Source: a bacterium
GTDB lineage: Bacteria > Bdellovibrionota_C > UBA2361 > CALJRW01
DNA length: 64,000 nt
Direction of reading: 5' to 3'
Assembly: GCA_031385045.1 (NCBI GenBank)
Contig: JANNBC010000016.1
Coordinates: forward strand, 1-64,000
Shown in pieces: positions 55,045 through 62,746 of this stretch. Positions within the stretch are counted from its first letter, which is position 1; every line of letters starts with the position of its first letter. The position numbers and the translations under genes were made by a program. The notes under the pieces are model-generated. The model did not search any database, was not told the DNA's origin, and was given only the letters and a program-made list of their open reading frames with translations.

Positions 55045-55169
55045 TTATAGGCTCAGATATAAGACAAGCTTTATTTAAGTAACTTAAATCACAAATAAAT
55101 CTACCTATTTTGTACCGGCAATCTCTTGACTTTAATTTATTTTAAGGTAAATTTTCAGTCCACAACTAT

Positions 55170-55242
55170 TCCCCGGTAGCTCAGTTGGTAGAGCAGTTGA
55201 CTGTTAATCAATTGGTCGTAGGTTCGAGTCCTTCCCGGGGAG
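55170..55242 (+). tRNA. tRNA-Asn (GTT), CCA not encoded
   Basis: TCCCCGG/CCGGGGA acceptor stem, D arm GCTC/GAGC, anticodon loop CTGTTAA, T loop TTCGAGT; TTGACT/TAAATT promoter upstream. Confidence 0.95.
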
Positions 55243-55260
55243 TTTCTTCCTTTTTTATGA

Positions 55261-55611
55261 CTAGAAAAAACTAACAGGATTTTGAGAGTCGAAATTATTT
55301 GGGAAAAGATTCTTTCTTGATTTAGTAAAATCTTGATTGATTTTTTGTTCTTGGATTGCAAGGACCATCGAAGCAACCTCAGGCAGCATATTCTTTAGGC
55401 TAATCTGATAAGTGGTTTTTAAGCTCTCAATAGCTGTAATAAACTGATGAGTAAAAGATCTGGATATAAAATTAATATCTGTAAAATCAATAATAATTTG
55501 TTTTTTTGAGTCTGATTGAGAAAGGATTTCTTGAAGGATTAGATCTGTAGTTGTTCTAAGTGCAACCTGACTGGAATTTAGTAAATTCTTTAAGTAAATT
55601 GTTCTTTCCAT
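55261..55611 (-). CDS. STAS-like (DUF4325-type) protein
   Basis: IIIDFTDINFISRSFTHQF motif; downstream of the HATPase gene. Confidence 0.75.
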   Translation of the reverse strand: MERTIYLKNLLNSSQVALRTTTDLILQEILSQSDSKKQIIIDFTDINFISRSFTHQFITAIESLKTTYQISLKNMLPEVASMVLAIQEQKINQDFTKSRKNLFPNNFDSQNPVSFF

Positions 55612-55664
55612 ATTGTTTATAATACTTCTTCTAAATAAAATTCGCTAGATAAATATATAATGAG

Positions 55665-56531
55665 CTATTTGGATATATATTTTAGTATATCGACTCTCGT
55701 TGTTGGGCGCATTAGCCTAGCACTAATTATTGTCCCCTGCCAATTAATCGGTATTGTTCCAAGTTTTGGTTCTACTATATTTGAAGAATTATGATAGCAA
55801 GCATTCCCGCTAATCAGTGTAAATTCGCCTTGAAGTTCACTCGAGCAGAAAAGATTAATATTCGTCCCAATTCCGTATCCACGTTCATTTGGTGTTTCTA
55901 ATTTAGAGGATTTGCCCTCAATCGCTTGACTCAAAGCATCGTAATGACTTGAGGTTCCAATTCCTCGCCGATCGTAACACCCTTTAAGACCAAGCCCATC
56001 GTCTAACAAGCAAATTTCAAGTTCTCCGCGAGTTGGCCAAAATTGACTGAAAATCCAAAAGTTTTCTGCTTCGGAATGTTGGATAACATTATCGCAAAGT
56101 TCAGAAATCAAGTATGAGATTGACCCTCGATAGTTTTCGCTGACTTCTTGATTCCTTTTAAGATATTCAATAATGAAATGATCATATTCTGTTGAGATTC
56201 TCTCGATCAGGTTGATCCGATTCATTTCTGGTTTAATTAAATTGACATGGCAAATAGGCATTTGATTTTTATTGTCATCGGCGATTGGAGTTGTTGTACC
56301 TTCTGGAAAAAATATTGACGATAAAGAATTAGGAGTATTGAGGGATATATTGCAGTTTTCACTGAGTTTCGTAATTTTAGCAGCTATAGGAAGTATGGTA
56401 AGAGGGGTTAGATAATGAATTTCTGATAAATCAATATTACTAGCAAACTCTTCCAGTGTTTTGAGATTATTGACAAGCTCTTGTATTCTTTGAATGGGGT
56501 CTCTTTCTTGGGTTAATGATAGCTTGATCAT
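55665..56531 (-). CDS. Histidine-kinase-like ATPase (GHKL) with N-terminal STAS-like region
   Basis: N box ELCDNVIQHS, G1 DDGLG, G2 ERGYGI, WQGT; no H-box/DHp or sensor domain; likely start ATG 56531. Confidence 0.8.
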   Translation of the reverse strand: MIKLSLTQERDPIQRIQELVNNLKTLEEFASNIDLSEIHYLTPLTILPIAAKITKLSENCNISLNTPNSLSSIFFPEGTTTPIADDNKNQMPICHVNLIKPEMNRINLIERISTEYDHFIIEYLKRNQEVSENYRGSISYLISELCDNVIQHSEAENFWIFSQFWPTRGELEICLLDDGLGLKGCYDRRGIGTSSHYDALSQAIEGKSSKLETPNERGYGIGTNINLFCSSELQGEFTLISGNACYHNSSNIVEPKLGTIPINWQGTIISARLMRPTTRVDILKYISK

Positions 56532-56597
56532 GTTAGAAAGCTTAAGCGTCAAAATAGGTAAAGTAAAGTGGTTTTTAGTTGAAATGCTTGTTCTTAT

Positions 56598-56960
56598 TTA
56601 GAGCGCTAGGTTTCGAAGCTCGACCGCCACGGGGAGTTTCTTTCTACCGTCTTTTCAGCCAAGCTTTTCATTGAATGGCGCACTCACTGAAAAGCCTAGC
56701 TTTTTATCTCTTAATGTTGTGTTCTGAATTAGATAATTAATAAAAGTCCTCTTTTCACTTATCTCAGAACTTTCAAAAATACGCTTAGCTCTTTTTGCTA
56801 AAGAAAAGACAGTGTTTGCAGTTAATAAGTAGTCCTGATCAGCCTTAGTAAAGATTTCAATCTCAATGTTTAATTTTTGTTGATTAGATTTTAACTGGTA
56901 CAGTTTTATTTCATAGTCTTCCTTAGCAATGCTCCAGTTTAAGAGTCTATCGTTAGACAC
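56598..56960 (-). pseudogene. C-terminal remnant of a large serine recombinase
   Basis: SLAKRAKRIFESSEISEKRTFINYLIQNTTLRDKKL..SAPF resembles an LSR tail; past the TGA at 56655 the frame continues KDGRKKLPVAVELRNLAL* through the att repeat. Confidence 0.75.
56606..56640 (+). repeat. att-like repeat 1
   Basis: CTAGGTTTCGAAGCTCGACCGCCACGGGGAGTTTC; CGGGGAGTTTCTT is shared with the tRNA 3' end (55236-55248). Confidence 0.85.
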
Positions 56961-57069
56961 ATCATCATTAATGGTATCACCTAGCCAGACGTAAAGTCCA
57001 GGTTGATCATAGGATAAAAGTTTGCCCTACAATGTTTTTTGTAATGAGCCCCAGATTTTATAAATCTTA

Positions 57070-58224
57070 CTACTCAGCTACAATTTTGTTTATCAACTTC
57101 TTAAGTGCTCTAAGTGCTTTTGACTTAAGTGGAACGAAATTACTTTCGGATCGTTTTGCCGCAAGTGCCGCAGCATTAACTGCTTTGACAGCAAGTTCGC
57201 TCGAAAGAATTAATTCATCTACAGTTTTATCTGTTCTTAAAGCTAGCTCGCCAGCAAAAGTATCGACATGACTATCGGCAAGTTGCGTGGCACTTTTAGC
57301 TGCTTTTCCACCTTTGCCTACAGATAGTTTTTTTGTTTTATTAATCGCATCACTGACCAATGCTCGATAATCTGCTTGGCAATCGGTGAATCCAAAATTT
57401 GCGATAGTCGCTTTAACCTCAGAGGTTAAATCCCCAAAAAGATTGGCGGCATTTACTGTTGTCATTGAGCTAAAAACAGCAGCTCCTGTTGCGGCAAGCT
57501 CATTTGTTGAATTCAATTGAACAAATGAAGCGAGGCGCTTAGTTTCACCTGGTGCGAGCTTGAATGTGAATCTTGTAATAAGATTATCGGAGATTTGTAT
57601 CGCAAGATCTGTCCTACTAGATAGACAACTTGGCCCTTGAGCGATAAAAGCGACAGCTGGATCACTTGGGGTAGTTGGATTATCACTTGTTACAATCCAA
57701 CTATCATTATTAAAAAAACTTGTATCGCCGGAACTGCTGTATCTTTTTGCCGTACTTTCATCAGATCCAAGGTTGCCATAGATAAAGACTTCTGCAGTTC
57801 TAGCTACGGCGGTAGGATTTTCAATCGCAACTAAGAGTCGTGCTGTTGGAGAACCTCCAACGAGGTTACTAAAAAATAGGTATTGCCCTGTTACATTTAA
57901 ACCGTCAATTGCTATTTTTTCAGCAGTAATAGCTGTTCCAAATGGGTTACCTTCCACTGAAATGTTAGACTGATCTGCAGAACTACTTGGTATGTAGTCA
58001 ACATTATTAACGGTCACTAAAAAGAACTCATCGAAGGCATCAGAATGACTGGGAATGCTTGCATCGCCAATATTGAAAGCTGGATTAAAATCAATTGAGG
58101 TCCATGTCGCCCCAGCCTCATTAACGGAGTCAACGGGCAATGATATTGGAGTGGCACTAGCAATTGAGCTAATCATTAGCACTGCTAATAGACCTTTAAT
58201 TTTGATAGCGGTTTTAATCTTCAT
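57070..58224 (-). CDS. Secreted beta-rich protein with an Ala/Lys-rich helical C-terminus
   Basis: GAGG RBS, signal peptide, SDAFD motif. Confidence 0.8.
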   Translation of the reverse strand: MKIKTAIKIKGLLAVLMISSIASATPISLPVDSVNEAGATWTSIDFNPAFNIGDASIPSHSDAFDEFFLVTVNNVDYIPSSSADQSNISVEGNPFGTAITAEKIAIDGLNVTGQYLFFSNLVGGSPTARLLVAIENPTAVARTAEVFIYGNLGSDESTAKRYSSSGDTSFFNNDSWIVTSDNPTTPSDPAVAFIAQGPSCLSSRTDLAIQISDNLITRFTFKLAPGETKRLASFVQLNSTNELAATGAAVFSSMTTVNAANLFGDLTSEVKATIANFGFTDCQADYRALVSDAINKTKKLSVGKGGKAAKSATQLADSHVDTFAGELALRTDKTVDELILSSELAVKAVNAAALAAKRSESNFVPLKSKALRALKKLINKIVAE

Positions 58225-58584
58225 ATTTTCCTCAATTAACATTGATTGACAAAATGGGAATAACTAATCTGACCTTCGCCACATTTCTGGACAGGAGTCT
58301 CTCGGTTATTGACCAGCATAAATTAACTTAAATTTATATGGACTACAATCCCCAACAGACGAATGGATTCTTGTAGTAATATAGAAGTTTTCTATCAACC
58401 AGTAATAGCTGAACCATACGACAACATCAAGTAAAATTTTTTTTGATAAATAAGTGTTGAAACTAGAGCTAGGTGACTTTTTTAACTATCTTGTCATATT
58501 TTATCTAGAGTCAGGCAACTTTTGCGTAGCAATTTCTTAATTCATAATCACTTTAGTTCCTAAGCAACAATTTCTAAAAATTAT

Positions 58585-58827
58585 CGATAAATCATAATAA
58601 AATTTTATGATAATTTAACTATGGAGATAATCAAAAAATACCTATAATCTATCTAAGTTTTTGATATCAGCAAAGTTTAGACAAGAGATCCTAACTTCAA
58701 ATCTCAGTTATGTCCTAAGCAGAAATGGATAGGCAGAGTATGTGGTGCATAATCTAGAAGCTTTCCAACGGCTTTATGGGCTAGCAGATTATGCAAGAAT
58801 TCGAATTGAGTCAGAGCGAACTGATTA
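58585..58827 (+). pseudogene. Decayed Phd/YefM-type antitoxin with palindromic operator
   Basis: With one frameshift reads MEIIKNTYNLSKF..FRQEILTSNLSYVLSRNG*AEYVVHNLEAFQRLYGLADY; TCATAA-N7-TTATGA upstream. Confidence 0.6.
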
Positions 58828-58941
58828 ACTAAGGAAGAGAAGCCAGATAACTGAGTAGGCTTTTTTAAAAAACTAGCCTGGTTTTAGTTTAAAAAGTTGA
58901 AAGATAGTTTTCTTGCAGAGAAACTTTAATCTTACCCCAAT

Positions 58942-58976
58942 CAAGAGTCCTGAACTCTTTCAACTTGGGGAGTTTC
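58942..58976 (+). repeat. att-like repeat 2 (divergent arm)
   Basis: GGGGAGTTTC core; the minus strand reads KLPKLKEFRTL, in the same register as KLPVAVELRNL; about 21/35 identical to repeat 1. Confidence 0.6.
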
Positions 58977-59232
58977 CCTTTTCTAGTCAGATTCTGAATT
59001 TCATAAATGTCTTTAGTCAATTTGAGTAAGCTTCTAACATAATTTGAGTAGAAAGTGACCTGACTCTATTTGTAAGTAACGAGCTTAGTAAAAATATTGG
59101 ATGGGAATCCCTATCAACACTACAGGTGAATTTCTTCAAATTCATCAGGACTATAATGCCCCAACAAAGAATTCAATTTAAGGGTATTTTTATCCAGCAA
59201 AATAGTAAAGTTCACTTTTAAAATGTTAGGAG

Positions 59233-59598
59233 TTATTCTAGTTTGCCTAATGCATACTGCATACCCGCCGCAAATCCTCCCATCGCAACTAATGATAGGC
59301 TCATTAATCCCAATAGTTTTGCCACAGCTACAGACTTTACTGCAATCGTGTCATGAGAATGAAACTTCATCGATTTCATAAAGTCAGTCACAGTGTCGCC
59401 CGTTTTTGGGGTCAAATTACTGTTAGTATGCAAGTCGGCAGAACGCTCTTTACTTGAACCACCACTCCTGGAATATTTAGCAATATTTTCTGGGCTAGAA
59501 GGACTTCCCATTCCAGGTGGCAGGGCATTAGCGTTGCCTATTCCAAACGAGGCAGCGGCCAATCCTGTTAATAATAGTGATTTTTGAGTTTTTAGCAT
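59233..59598 (-). CDS. Small exported protein with a C-terminal TM
   Basis: Signal-like N-terminus (ANA cleavage site), hydrophobic C-terminus. Confidence 0.6.
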   Translation of the reverse strand: MLKTQKSLLLTGLAAASFGIGNANALPPGMGSPSSPENIAKYSRSGGSSKERSADLHTNSNLTPKTGDTVTDFMKSMKFHSHDTIAVKSVAVAKLLGLMSLSLVAMGGFAAGMQYALGKLE

Positions 59599-59776
59599 TT
59601 AATCATCTTTTTTGAATATTATTATACAGGGTTATGTAGCTACTCTCCTCTGGTGTGATATGAATTATTTACCGTAATATTATTAAATGTTGAGTATTTG
59701 TATGTGTGAATTTTTAACGTAAATTTTGATAGGCTACTAACTTCTTCCAGATAAGTATTTGCGATAGTCTTTAACT

Positions 59777-59811
59777 CTAAGTTTCGAAGCTTGACCGCTA
59801 AGGGGAGTTTT
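59777..59811 (+). repeat. att-like repeat 3
   Basis: CTAAGTTTCGAAGCTTGACCGCTAAGGGGAGTTTT; 30/35 identical to repeat 1. Confidence 0.85.
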
Positions 59812-59967
59812 TTACTACTCAGCATTCTGACAGAGTCCAAGTTCCTATAGTTTTTAAAATATAATAGTAGAATTGAATTGATGTCTATTGATTGCTTCTT
59901 CGCAATAACTCGATAAAGCTACTCAGCCCCATTTTAAATCTTGAGGAATTTAGTTGAAGAAGGTTTA

Positions 59968-60510
59968 TTATTCCTTTAAGGACTGGAACCCTAATTTTCT
60001 TTTTTTAGTTTCAATCGGTTGTTCAAGCTGGGAGATCACAAATCTGATCTCCTGTAATTCCTCGCTATGTTCTGAGAATCCTTTGGAGACTTTTTGTTCA
60101 AGTGCCTGTAACCGTTGTTTCAAATCAGTGTGTTCCTGTGCAACTTCCTTTAGTTTGAAAAAACTCGAACTAACATAATGCTAGCTTGAATTGCGATCTT
60201 ACTGTTTAGCACATTAGCAGCCATAACTGCTCCATATTCAGTAAAGACTCTTGGAGATTTCCTTCTTCCGCCGTGGGCATAACTTGAAGTCGCAATTTGC
60301 GACTTCAAGTCTGTAACTTCTTGAATATTAAGAGAAAACATAAAGTCAGAGGGGAATCTTTCCAAGTTTCTAGTAACCTGTTCATTTAGGCGTTTTGTGT
60401 TGACACCATAAAGATCCGCCAAGTCGCTATCTAAAATAACCCTTTGACCTTTAATTATAATAATTCTTGATTCAATCTCTTTAGTAAGTTTAAGTTTTGG
60501 TCTGGAACAA
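59968..60510 (-). pseudogene. ORF6N (KilA-N-like) DNA-binding protein, frameshifted
   Basis: IKGQRVILDSDLADLYGV.TKRLNEQV.RN.ERFP.DFMF..HGGRRK.P.VFTEYG; frameshift in the T6 run at 60158-60163; continues ..KRKLGF; start lost. Confidence 0.85.
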
Positions 60511-60757
60511 CCCTACATGGCTTTAACTGCTTTACTGATACCAATTGCTACTATGATCATGATTAAAAAAGTGAAACCCACTTAGTTCAAAGTAGGAATA
60601 TTCTCTGAGAAGAATTTTATGTTACTTGTTCCATCTTTCCCTCTTGTGCCACCCAACTCTAGTTCTAAGAGTAGCCGGTCTCTCTCGCCACCATTAACTT
60701 CTCAGTCCTTAGGTCAATGAATGTAAAAGACAGGCTACTTACTTATTGAAAACTAGT

Positions 60758-61348
60758 TTAAAAAACTGCAGCTGGAGTTTGCGTCATTGCCCAAGTTCCC
60801 CAAGCATAAAAATTAACACCATTTGTTTCATTGTAACCATATAGCGCTCCACCATAAATTGAGGATGTCGATATGTCACCAGTCCCAGCATCAATAGCGT
60901 TATATAAGAAATACCTGTCCTCAAATTGTGTATCTAGATTATCTGCCAGAGTTTCATAGATACACAAGACTCCTTCTGGGGCAGTTGGGTTACTGAACGA
61001 ACCAGTGCAGGTAGCATTCCAGGTATCTTTTTTTACAAAGACAACGGAACTTGGGGCTGTTTGTAGCTTAACGGGAAAGGAGATTTGTGCAGCAGCATAA
61101 TTTTCGGCGGTTCCACCTGATAGATTCCAAACGCCAGTTTGAGTTACAGGAGCTTTATTTAAATCTGTTAAGGAAGAATAGCCTGTTGGACAACTTGAGC
61201 TTTCTATGGTGATGAGCTTTGGTGTTTTTATATTTACCTTGCCATTAACTACGCTAGCCTTTTTAGAATTTTTAAGGCAGATAATTTCTGCTTGCAAATT
61301 GCTGGCTAGAAGAAACAATCCTAAAGTAAGTAACGCTAAATTTTTCAT
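60758..61348 (-). CDS. Secreted protein, paralog of 61834-62412
   Basis: Signal peptide; WNL.G, ISFP, CTGS...PTAP.GVLCIYE, GTWA. Confidence 0.8.
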   Translation of the reverse strand: MKNLALLTLGLFLLASNLQAEIICLKNSKKASVVNGKVNIKTPKLITIESSSCPTGYSSLTDLNKAPVTQTGVWNLSGGTAENYAAAQISFPVKLQTAPSSVVFVKKDTWNATCTGSFSNPTAPEGVLCIYETLADNLDTQFEDRYFLYNAIDAGTGDISTSSIYGGALYGYNETNGVNFYAWGTWAMTQTPAAVF

Positions 61349-61592
61349 TTTTATTTTCAAGAGTAAAAGATTGAGAGTTTTGGGTTATGCCCAAATTTTT
61401 TCAGATTAGATGATAGAAATATGAAAGTAAACAAATAAGTATCTTGCCCTAAGTTAGAGGGTAGGAGTGGAAAACCACTTTGCCAAGATGGCTGTGAGAG
61501 TCAGGTAACTTATTACTAGAAATGCCAATCCAGCTTTTAATGAGTTTTATCAGATATTGGGACCCCCTAGAATGAATATCTGGGCTAGGATT

Positions 61593-61629
61593 ATAGGTTT
61601 CAAAGTTCGACAGCATTATAAAGAGTTTT
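61593..61629 (+). repeat. att-like repeat 4 (core decayed)
   Basis: ATAGGTTTCAAAGTTCGACAGC is 18/22 identical to the repeat 1 arm, followed by ..AAAGAGTTTT. Confidence 0.55.
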
Positions 61630-61833: not shown

Positions 61834-62412
61834 ATGAAAAAAATTGTTCTAATATTACTGAGTATTATTTTCTGTACATTTAATATTCAAGCAGAAGTGG
61901 TGTGTATGAAAAATATCAAAAGATATAAAGTATCAGCTACTAGTAAAGTAAAAGTGAAAACACCTCAATTGTTAACGACTGAAGATTTAACTTGCCCTGC
62001 TGGATATACTCAATTAGTAGAAGTTCCAAGCAAACCTACTACCTTTATTGGCTCATGGAATTTGGCAGGACAAGGAAATGGTAGCTATGGGGCGGCAAGT
62101 ATTTCTTTTCCAGAACCTTTAGATTCCGATCCCAGCGAGGTTATTGTTGTGCAGTTTGGAACTAACAATGGGACATGTACAGGATCGTCTACCGCACCAA
62201 CTGCTCCAGCAGGCGTGCTTTGTATTTATGAAGGTTATCAGAGTGGACTAAGGAGTGATTTTAATAATCGATACAATGCCTTTACACCAGTCGATGACAG
62301 TGGTTCAGGGAGAAGCGCCTCAAGATTTGGAACAGCCTTATTTGGCTATCCAACTATTGCTTCGTCATTTGAATACTATGCTTTCGGTACTTGGGCGGTA
62401 ACAAAACCATAA
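61834..62412 (+). CDS. Secreted protein, paralog of 60758-61348
   Basis: GGAG RBS, signal peptide, same conserved motifs. Confidence 0.82.
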   Translation: MKKIVLILLSIIFCTFNIQAEVVCMKNIKRYKVSATSKVKVKTPQLLTTEDLTCPAGYTQLVEVPSKPTTFIGSWNLAGQGNGSYGAASISFPEPLDSDPSEVIVVQFGTNNGTCTGSSTAPTAPAGVLCIYEGYQSGLRSDFNNRYNAFTPVDDSGSGRSASRFGTALFGYPTIASSFEYYAFGTWAVTKP

Positions 62413-62474
62413 TTTAAACTTTTACAGATAAGTAAAGGGTTACGCTAGCTAAAATGCGTGATAAATTATTTTGT

Positions 62475-62746
62475 ATATACTAAAACACATTAAGTTTTTC
62501 CTTACGGCATGGAAAAATGCGAAGAGCATTTTCCGCTCATCGTGTTTTAGTATATTTGTTTTCCCCAATAATTAACCTTATAAAATAAGGTTAATTACCT
62601 TAGCGACCCCCAAGGGTCGCCGCAAGCACTTCGTGCTTGATATACTAGGCGATTAGATTTGGACGGTAATTATCAATGTCGCCTAGTATATACAAATACT
62701 TAGAGTTGGTAGTTGCAAATTTGAATCGGTGCTTCTAATTTGCAAC
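62475..62746. repeat. Cluster of six inverted repeats
   Basis: Perfect arms of 14, 13, 7, 7, 13 and 10 bp (detailed in findings). Confidence 0.75.

Follow-up and report, generated by a model that had tools for sequence, protein, structure and literature searches.

What process placed a row of short units with unrelated genes behind the tRNA-Asn gene of a bacterium of the Bdellovibrionota_C? The row occupies positions 55,170 to 61,629 of the window, that is, of the whole 64,000-nucleotide stretch analysed (contig JANNBC010000016.1 of assembly GCA_031385045.1). We refer to the host genome, which is 95% complete, as G000 and to a genome of the same genus as G001. An earlier note, made from the letters of the window alone, had proposed that the units were laid down by serial integration of large serine recombinase (LSR) elements at the end of the tRNA and may be minimal cassettes moved in trans. 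Judged by their sequence, the first three repeats that bound the units are attP arms of an LSR family joined to a tRNA-Asn core. On balance we favour the interpretation that the locus is an accretion stack, resembling cis-mobilizable elements (CIMEs), which visiting LSR elements left stranded in this host. The target, the four repeats and the recombinase relic, as predicted, are the following.

55169..55243, plus strand: tRNA-Asn(gtt), the integration target (ARAGORN; Rfam 55170-55242), without encoded CCA
55237-55242, plus strand: crossover core GGGGAG, 6 bp, the last tRNA-Asn bases
56607..56640, minus strand: repeat 1, attP arm 56607-56630 and core 56631-56636 (family profile 24.2 bits, rank 1)
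56637..56951, minus strand: C-terminal LSR relic in unit 2; ~105 final codons remain, ending at the core and interrupted by one in-frame stop, and the ~390 before them are missing
58942..58976, minus strand: repeat 2, attP arm of another family member and core 58967-58972 (17.2 bits, rank 3)
59777..59811, minus strand: repeat 3, attP arm and core 59802-59807, the last clear junction (21.5 bits, rank 2)
61594..61629, minus strand: repeat 4, attP arm decayed but matching that of repeat 1 at 18/21, core unrecognisable

The bases common to tRNA-Asn and repeats 1-3 are GGGGAG; the T-rich TTTCTT behind the core is not tRNA. Repeats 1 and 3 are identical at 30 of 35 positions, as the earlier note had stated, and the ungapped identity to repeat 1 is 21/35 for repeats 2 and 4 alike. 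On the minus strand each junction resembles the end of an LSR gene, with KKLPGKDSNLRP reading into the tRNA, and the translations of repeats 1, 2 and 3 have the LSR-like ends KKLPVAVELRN, GKLPKLKEFRT and KKLPLAVKLRN, respectively. A 30-bp profile was built from 23 LSR genes of the family that read into the arm and not into the tRNA, none of them from the host genome. Among 5,653,330 positions on both strands of the host genome, repeats 1, 3 and 2 gave the three best scores; the best other site reached 14.5 bits, and the repeat of G001 scored 26.5 bits with the same profile. This independent profile confirms for repeats 1-3, which lie far above chance, that the tRNA-Asn end recurs in co-oriented repeats. 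Four such repeats had been claimed, but the fourth stands only as a decayed arm. It fails the profile (best score, -11.3) because its core is decayed and displaced by 2 nt, and only its 21-bp arm resembles repeat 1. It is probably the old outer boundary of the stack. The assembly of the region is supported by a single contig from a possible source run, which covers 55198-60310, and by contigs of a second study, which run across repeats 1, 3 and 4 with the order unchanged.

The left arm of the repeats had been described as non-tRNA sequence echoing the T arm. It is indeed not tRNA, but it corresponds to the LSR's own C-terminal coding sequence and attP arm rather than to a mere echo. In the arm, the distance of a conserved motif from the core exceeds that in the tRNA by 5 bp (agreement 0.53 at +5; next best, 0.39). 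Such an offset of the zinc-ribbon site between attP and attB is described for serine integrases (PMC3783163), and since the +5 shift matches it, the T-arm-like stretch is most likely the LSR binding motif.

The LSR relic of unit 2 is 70% identical (68/97) to residues 392-488 of an intact 504-aa LSR, P0001, and is colinear with it, having the same length up to the core. P0001 contains the resolvase, recombinase and zinc-ribbon domains PF00239, PF07508 and PF13408. On this comparison unit 2 is a decayed full element of which only cargo and the LSR tail are left. As in other serine-integrase att sites, we find a short shared core, an attP motif placed 5 bp outward and a cognate LSR with these three domains. 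Hybrid P-O-P′ junctions had been postulated throughout the locus. One is demonstrable only at repeat 1, into which the relic reads; the other junctions of the window lack an LSR-coding prime arm.

An alignment of 15 LSR relatives was used to collect 160 loci by taking the 80 best matches from each of two scans, and most of the named ones belong to Patescibacteria. In 70/160 loci the LSR gene runs into a tRNA-Asn of reversed orientation, and in 15/160 into other tRNAs; the 75 without a tRNA call are contig ends, tRNAs with insertions, or ends reading into the attP arm. Intact elements of 5-10 kb contain an attP arm, a conserved Rep-like gene, an excisionase-like helix-turn-helix gene (PHROG E 5e-9), cargo and the LSR gene, whose 3′ end spans its own att site. 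The conserved gene is rolling-circle-Rep-like and gave a Phage_CRI-like lead (0.97, family on 25-61% of cluster members). Two LSR genes stand in tandem in ten loci, and an LSR tail of the window's kind occurs in one other unit (L311). Serial LSR integration at a regenerated tRNA 3′ end, as proposed in the earlier note, is borne out by the 70 tRNA-Asn loci, by the composition of the repeats and by the LSR-less units found directly at the tRNA in 12 of 16 loci (below). Many of the Patescibacteria tRNA-Asn genes targeted in this way seem to have long insertions in the anticodon loop (L080, L104, L143, L145, L308, L330 and others), because of which ARAGORN misses or misnames them.

The layout of the stack recurs in many ultra-small bacteria and is, as far as sequence patterns tell, common in Patescibacteria. 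Within the 160 loci the profile gave 115 further matches on the LSR strand, some of them tRNA junctions just above the cut-off, versus 10 on the other strand. Rows of up to eight sites, spaced 0.3-1.2 kb apart, extend beyond an intact element (L124, L093). A degenerate arm pattern was present in 120/401 genomes of one Patescibacteria class, compared with 5 for the reversed control. Of these sites 36 were fetched, multi-hit contigs first and thus non-randomly; 16 of them showed the target tRNA, and in 12 of these 16 no LSR lies between the tRNA and the first arm. We catalogued 112 short units, 5 of them from the window and G001, with a median length of 873 bp; at a threshold of at least 70 aa, 62 hold one open reading frame (ORF) and 17 none. 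The 134 cargo proteins scanned have mixed accessory functions, including NUDIX, methyltransferases, peptidase S51 and DUF1801. An LSR-coding prime arm is present at 1/91 distal family junctions, and the others show hairpins or TTGACA boxes. The median arm score is 24.8 bits for units, a value inflated by the cut-off of 14, versus 29.7 bits for intact elements. Another genome (G018, L279) has six near-identical arm-like 27-mers on five contigs, probably another repeat.

Measured from core to core, the units of the window are 1.39, 2.34, 0.84 and ~1.82 kb long, and the stop codon of the STAS-like gene lies 18 bp from tRNA-Asn; sizes of ~1.4, 2.3, 0.8 and 1.8 kb and the same gap had been given before. 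The genes in the units are the following.

55261..55611, minus strand: unit 1, STAS-like (DUF4325) protein (Pfam E 1.5e-4, below cut-off)
55665..56531, minus strand: unit 1, HATPase-like protein (Pfam E 0.05, below cut-off)
57070..58242, minus strand: unit 2, 390-aa protein with a signal-peptide-like start, no named family
58552..58825, plus strand: unit 2, frameshifted relic, with three more broken copies elsewhere in the host genome
59233..59598, minus strand: unit 3, small 121-aa protein with hydrophobic ends, no family match
59954..60490, minus strand: unit 4, ORF6N-domain gene, frameshifted, intact in G001 (Pfam E 2e-22)
60758..61348, minus strand: unit 4, 196-aa protein with a signal-peptide-like start

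Among the cargo labels given earlier, ORF6N is firm, but STAS and HATPase fall below the Pfam cut-offs and the "antitoxin relic" is without a family match. A homologue 67% identical to the HATPase-like protein matches HATPase_c at E 8e-4. The frameshifted relic of unit 2 matched nothing in Pfam or PHROG, and its likeness to an antitoxin, which these family searches did not confirm, is at most a tentative resemblance. The 390-aa protein has 941 representatives at E<=0.001 and no Pfam, NCBIfam or PADLOC match, and a PADLOC scan of six cargo proteins gave no match either. Scans for promoters and terminators were at chance level (23 versus 22.8 and 7 versus 5.1, respectively). By ORFs and family scans, the units contain no integrase or transfer genes other than the LSR relic. 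Unit 2 retains both arms, units 1 and 3 have an arm and core with no recognisable prime arm, and unit 4 has a decayed outer site. A parent element for units 1, 3 and 4 was not found. The cargo had no match in the 160 LSR loci, and in viral contigs neither the repeat pattern nor the HATPase gave a match. In the 401 genomes of the Patescibacteria class the unit 1 HATPase has 2 distant matches, with no att site within 1.5 kb of either.

All intact cargo genes of the window (55261-61348) face the tRNA, and 120/147 ORFs of the catalogued units point away from it. One LSR-less family unit (L064:372-1692) contains a HATPase-like and DUF4325 pair of the unit 1 class, of which only the STAS parts align, weakly. 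Inside unit 3, a repeat piece at 59075-59175 that is also found at the ends of six contigs is insertion-sequence-end-like. Beyond repeat 4, a paralogue of the secreted gene of unit 4 lies on the opposite strand at 61834-62412 (57% DNA identity), and a ~230-bp non-coding repeat at 62460-62700 has dozens of copies in the host genome and G001.

We also compared the locus with that of G001; here and below, all compared genomes are species representatives, not strains of one species. Homology to G001 stops 15 bp behind the tRNA core, from where G001 carries other cargo. The order in G001 is secreted gene, att site, ORF6N gene, a head-to-tail form of unit 4, and the orthologue of the 196-aa protein, 85% identical, thus lies across its att junction. 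The window spacer between the two genes of unit 4 weakly matches tRNA-proximal DNA of G001 (0/300 shuffles as good; score 40 versus a maximum of 39). The G001 arm that follows the secreted gene is similar to repeat 1 but not to repeat 4 (0/300 versus 68/300 shuffles as good). Two breakpoints relative to G001, at 60492 and 60666, lie away from the repeats, and the variable region runs >15 kb past repeat 4 without an att site or synteny to G001. The exchange at repeat boundaries that had been expected holds only in part, as the two genes shared with G001 were exchanged partly at these non-repeat points.

An intact cognate LSR had been anticipated elsewhere in the genome. None was found in G000, G001 or 124 genomes of the phylum (E<=1e-50). 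G000 has only two LSRs, reading into tRNA-Ala and tRNA-His, and G001 has one, at tRNA-Ala; a P0001 query of 91 and 124 genomes recovered only the tRNA-His LSR (31%). The expected circular junctions did not appear either: contigs of 4 of the 7 listed runs, which drop rare forms, showed no circle, joint or skipped unit. With the non-repeat breakpoints, these absences agree in part with two of the conditions that the earlier note had named as refuting its proposal. A motif screen of the tRNA-Asn loci of 14 order-level relatives gave no such repeats. A loose arm pattern occurred in 47/124 genomes of the host's class, but controls were equally frequent, and therefore only sites confirmed beside tRNA-Asn were used. 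At tRNA-His, G000 carries a 6.9-kb sister element (end of C43 and C44; L039) with a type IIG restriction-modification gene, an intact LSR and a Rep-like gene 35% identical to that of the family. Since the G000 assembly also has an empty tRNA-His site with the same flank, this sister element is either polymorphic or excising in the sample. Genome G002 has two tRNA-Asn loci, one of which (L340, C152) has, at the tRNA, a weak match to an LSR C terminus (E 5e-4).

Do such units travel as cassettes? None of the window's units was found whole elsewhere, and among the 112 units compared none was common as a whole to two arrays. The best sign of a possible movement in trans is a gene-less unit of 135 bp from core to core. 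Four genomes of the host's order, from three genera and two families, carry it at 84-91% identity (L344, L345, L346 and L347 in G058, G086, G084 and G087). It always lies <300 bp from tRNA-Asn and has four unrelated outer flanks, and the recR DNA of two of its carriers is 65% identical. One part of it is an attP arm that runs to its stop codon, and the other is a 70-bp dispersed repeat joined to this arm; since half of the unit is dispersed repeat, repeated deletion could also produce it. The 70-bp repeat itself is order-wide (54/124 genomes), occurs beside tRNA-Asn, -Ala, -His and -Thr and in tandem runs (L348, L349, L351, L355, L358 and others), and may itself be a miniature element that seeks out tRNAs. 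A search for the genes of one Patescibacteria array covered 36 genomes of the array's family; a second examination took in 22 loci, of which 21 were aligned, some of them on short contigs. Of the 21 homologues, 15 had no att site nearby, 2 a weak distant match, 2 a site on one side, and 2 sites on both sides with other arms. In one shared unit with an NYN gene, homology stops exactly at the core. As genes shared between arrays usually stand with different arms or away from arrays, we regard the traffic of intact cassettes as unproven. The earlier suggestion of minimal non-autonomous cassettes does not hold for unit 2, which is a deletion relic.

Starting from the target, the family, the arms of repeats 1-3 and the decay of unit 2, which are directly supported, we infer the following course for an accretion stack. 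Small integrative elements would insert at the last bases of tRNA-Asn. Since the 3′ end of the LSR gene spans the att site, each insertion would regenerate the tRNA and leave an attP arm and core at the far end. Units 1, 3 and 4 would be integrase-less residues of the CIME type, either trimmed elements or accessory genes (with promoters) that settled between arm and core, and could not move alone. A visiting LSR of the family could excise the block from tRNA to arm, carry it in cis, or re-insert it at the tRNA and so reorder the units; the newest material would adjoin the tRNA. The stack would be stranded and decaying in the host because no cognate LSR is present. We count in favour of this course the decay in the window (the in-frame stop of the relic, the frameshifted ORF6N gene and the broken repeat 4), the change of arms by cargo genes in the 21-homologue comparison, the tandem LSR genes, the further LSR tail in L311, and the match between relic and LSR. 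The reading of the family into tRNA-Asn, the profile ranking of repeats 1-3, the +5 offset of the motif and the published sizes of CIMEs and microCIMEs (below) speak for it as well. Several observations weigh against it. Random decay predicts LSR-coding prime arms of mixed length, but such an arm is seen at only 1/91 distal junctions and in only 1/4 window units. The family units are regular, 62 of 112 containing one ORF and the median length being 873 bp, and their arms score little below those of intact elements, a closeness that the cut-off of 14 inflates. Classical CIMEs are seldom stacked more than 2-3 deep, compared with up to eight sites here (L124). None of the proposed steps was seen in reads.

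We regard with some doubt, but as a serious possibility, the proposal that the units are minimal cassettes moved singly in trans, which does not exclude an accretion stack. For the LSR, an arm on the tRNA side and an attP arm would suffice, with the prime side ignored, so that any circle of arm, core and whatever further DNA would be a substrate, in an integron-like manner on double-stranded DNA. The promoters or hairpins in place of LSR sequence on the prime sides of family junctions would fit this, as would the 12 of 16 loci with an LSR-less stretch directly at the tRNA, the 135-bp unit with unrelated flanks, the NYN-gene unit that terminates at a core and the head-to-tail order of the unit 4 genes in G001. 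The NUDIX, methyltransferase, peptidase S51 and DUF1801 cargo classes resemble integron cassette cargo. Set against these are the lack of any whole unit shared by two of the arrays among the 112 units, the shared genes with different arms or outside arrays, the half of the 135-bp unit that is dispersed repeat and obtainable by repeated deletion, and the units of <1 kb without a transfer function. The G001 arm is not orthologous to repeat 4 (68/300 shuffles as good) and two breakpoints lie away from the repeats; neither a cognate LSR in G000, G001 and the 124 phylum genomes nor a joint or skipped unit in the contigs of four runs, which drop rare forms, was found. The widest form of the proposal appears to us similarly doubtful: an LSR family reading only one arm would make a cassette of any circle with a 30-bp arm and the 6-bp core, and its visiting elements would run an integron-like capture stack behind tRNA-Asn, adding, excising and reordering one-gene cassettes, in about one third of Patescibacteria genomes; the system would have spilled into an unrelated phylum, with the window and the 135-bp empty cassette as its traces.

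It is improbable, in our view, that the repeats are inert scars of single past insertions, never reused, among which genes turn over by deletion, insertion and homologous exchange in a hot spot. The breakpoints at 60492 and 60666, the dispersed repeats and pseudogenes within units, and the variable region of >15 kb past repeat 4 without att site or synteny to G001 are as this explanation would have it. However, the non-coding arms retain the putative binding motif, including third codon positions, a regular one-gene spacing in up to eight copies is unexpected for inert 30-bp scars, and homology to G001 breaks off 15 bp past the core of the tRNA. Short repeats in one orientation between unrelated genes, two of them (repeats 2 and 4) with only 21/35 identity to repeat 1, could also suggest integron attC sites, direct repeats of a tyrosine integrase, or chance similarity. 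This we consider very nearly excluded. The repeats share no hairpin (z -1.6, -1.8, +1.0 and +1.7), the contig has no tyrosine recombinase (PF00589; 4 elsewhere in the genome), and a profile derived from LSR genes places repeats 1-3 at the top of the genome, which refutes it for these three, repeat 4 alone being weak. A CRISPR (clustered regularly interspaced short palindromic repeats) reading of the repeats was rejected as well.

How does the accretion stack compare with known systems? Integrons likewise have a row of small, mostly one-gene units between recombination sites, presumably with the newest next to a fixed anchor. In contrast to integrons, the locus has no IntI, attI, Pc platform or attC hairpin; its sites are double-stranded serine-integrase arms, family units have promoter-like sequence of their own, and genes lose their site in another array. 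Staphylococcal cassette chromosome (SCC) composite islands at rlmH include ccr-less pseudo-SCC elements. They share with the stack an LSR, tandem att sites and recombinase-less members, and differ in the protein-gene target rlmH, much larger elements and ccr genes that are not known to span the att site. CcrA, CcrB and CcrC are the nearest named relatives of P0001 (E 3e-31). Membership in SCC or pseudo-SCC was rejected, as P0001 lies far below the CcrB cut-off (108 versus 900 bits) and the target is tRNA-Asn.

CIMEs are described as att-bounded, integrase-less residues of 1.2-13 kb moved in cis, with gene-less microCIMEs of 130-220 bp (PMC7563491, PMC5704250). Streptococcal CIMEs resemble the stack as helper-dependent, integrase-less att-bounded units stacked with intact elements at a gene or tRNA 3′ end. 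Unlike them, the LSR gene here spans attP, most units lack the prime arm of a parent, and stacks reach eight sites. Composites of Streptococcus salivarius have an integrative and conjugative element (ICE) or integrative and mobilizable element (IME) at the target, whereas here an LSR-less unit often adjoins it. An origin by deletion from an ICE or IME, one mark of CIMEs, is seen for unit 2 only. Tandem arrangements exist in family loci; an active cognate element was not found in the host. The Dehalococcoides ssrA islands, integrated by the serine recombinase DsiB, have an LSR module in 16/31 islands and none in 15/31 (PMC3146451). Like the stack, they stand in tandem at an RNA gene 3′ end, with a reverse-strand LSR module beside attL and a conserved non-target motif upstream of each repeat. 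They differ in their tmRNA target, T-loop crossover, 20-bp repeat, vcrABC islands of ~12 kb and six-gene module, compared with a 6-bp acceptor-stem core and units of 0.3-2 kb here; the smallest ssrA sizes may be given in the supplements. Tycheposons also build islands by tRNA-anchored accretion with tandem junctions, but each carries its own integrase and partial tRNA repeats of ~40 nt, and 910/937 elements encode a tyrosine recombinase (bioRxiv 10.1101/2020.12.28.424599). We rejected membership among them, as the window units have no integrase of their own. Titles and abstract openings in the open literature, a coverage that leaves out most subscription journals, revealed no tRNA-Asn LSR array of one-gene units.

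The locus is a real, decayed instance of an apparently undescribed, though CIME-like, tRNA-Asn stack in a host outside Patescibacteria. To our knowledge, few routes of accessory-gene gain are established for the ultra-small Patescibacteria. A single tRNA-anchored site with a 30-bp motif that can be found by search, present in ~30% of the sampled genomes of one class, would provide a concrete and testable route, and the window shows that this machinery has also been active in another phylum, in a host with a larger genome. If it is true that the enzyme ignores prime arms, it would break the usual four-arm rule of serine integrase directionality and could be turned into a simple gene-stacking tool for tRNA sites. 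Should the units turn out to be residues only, they would still be a useful marker of insertion history, within the known CIME kind.

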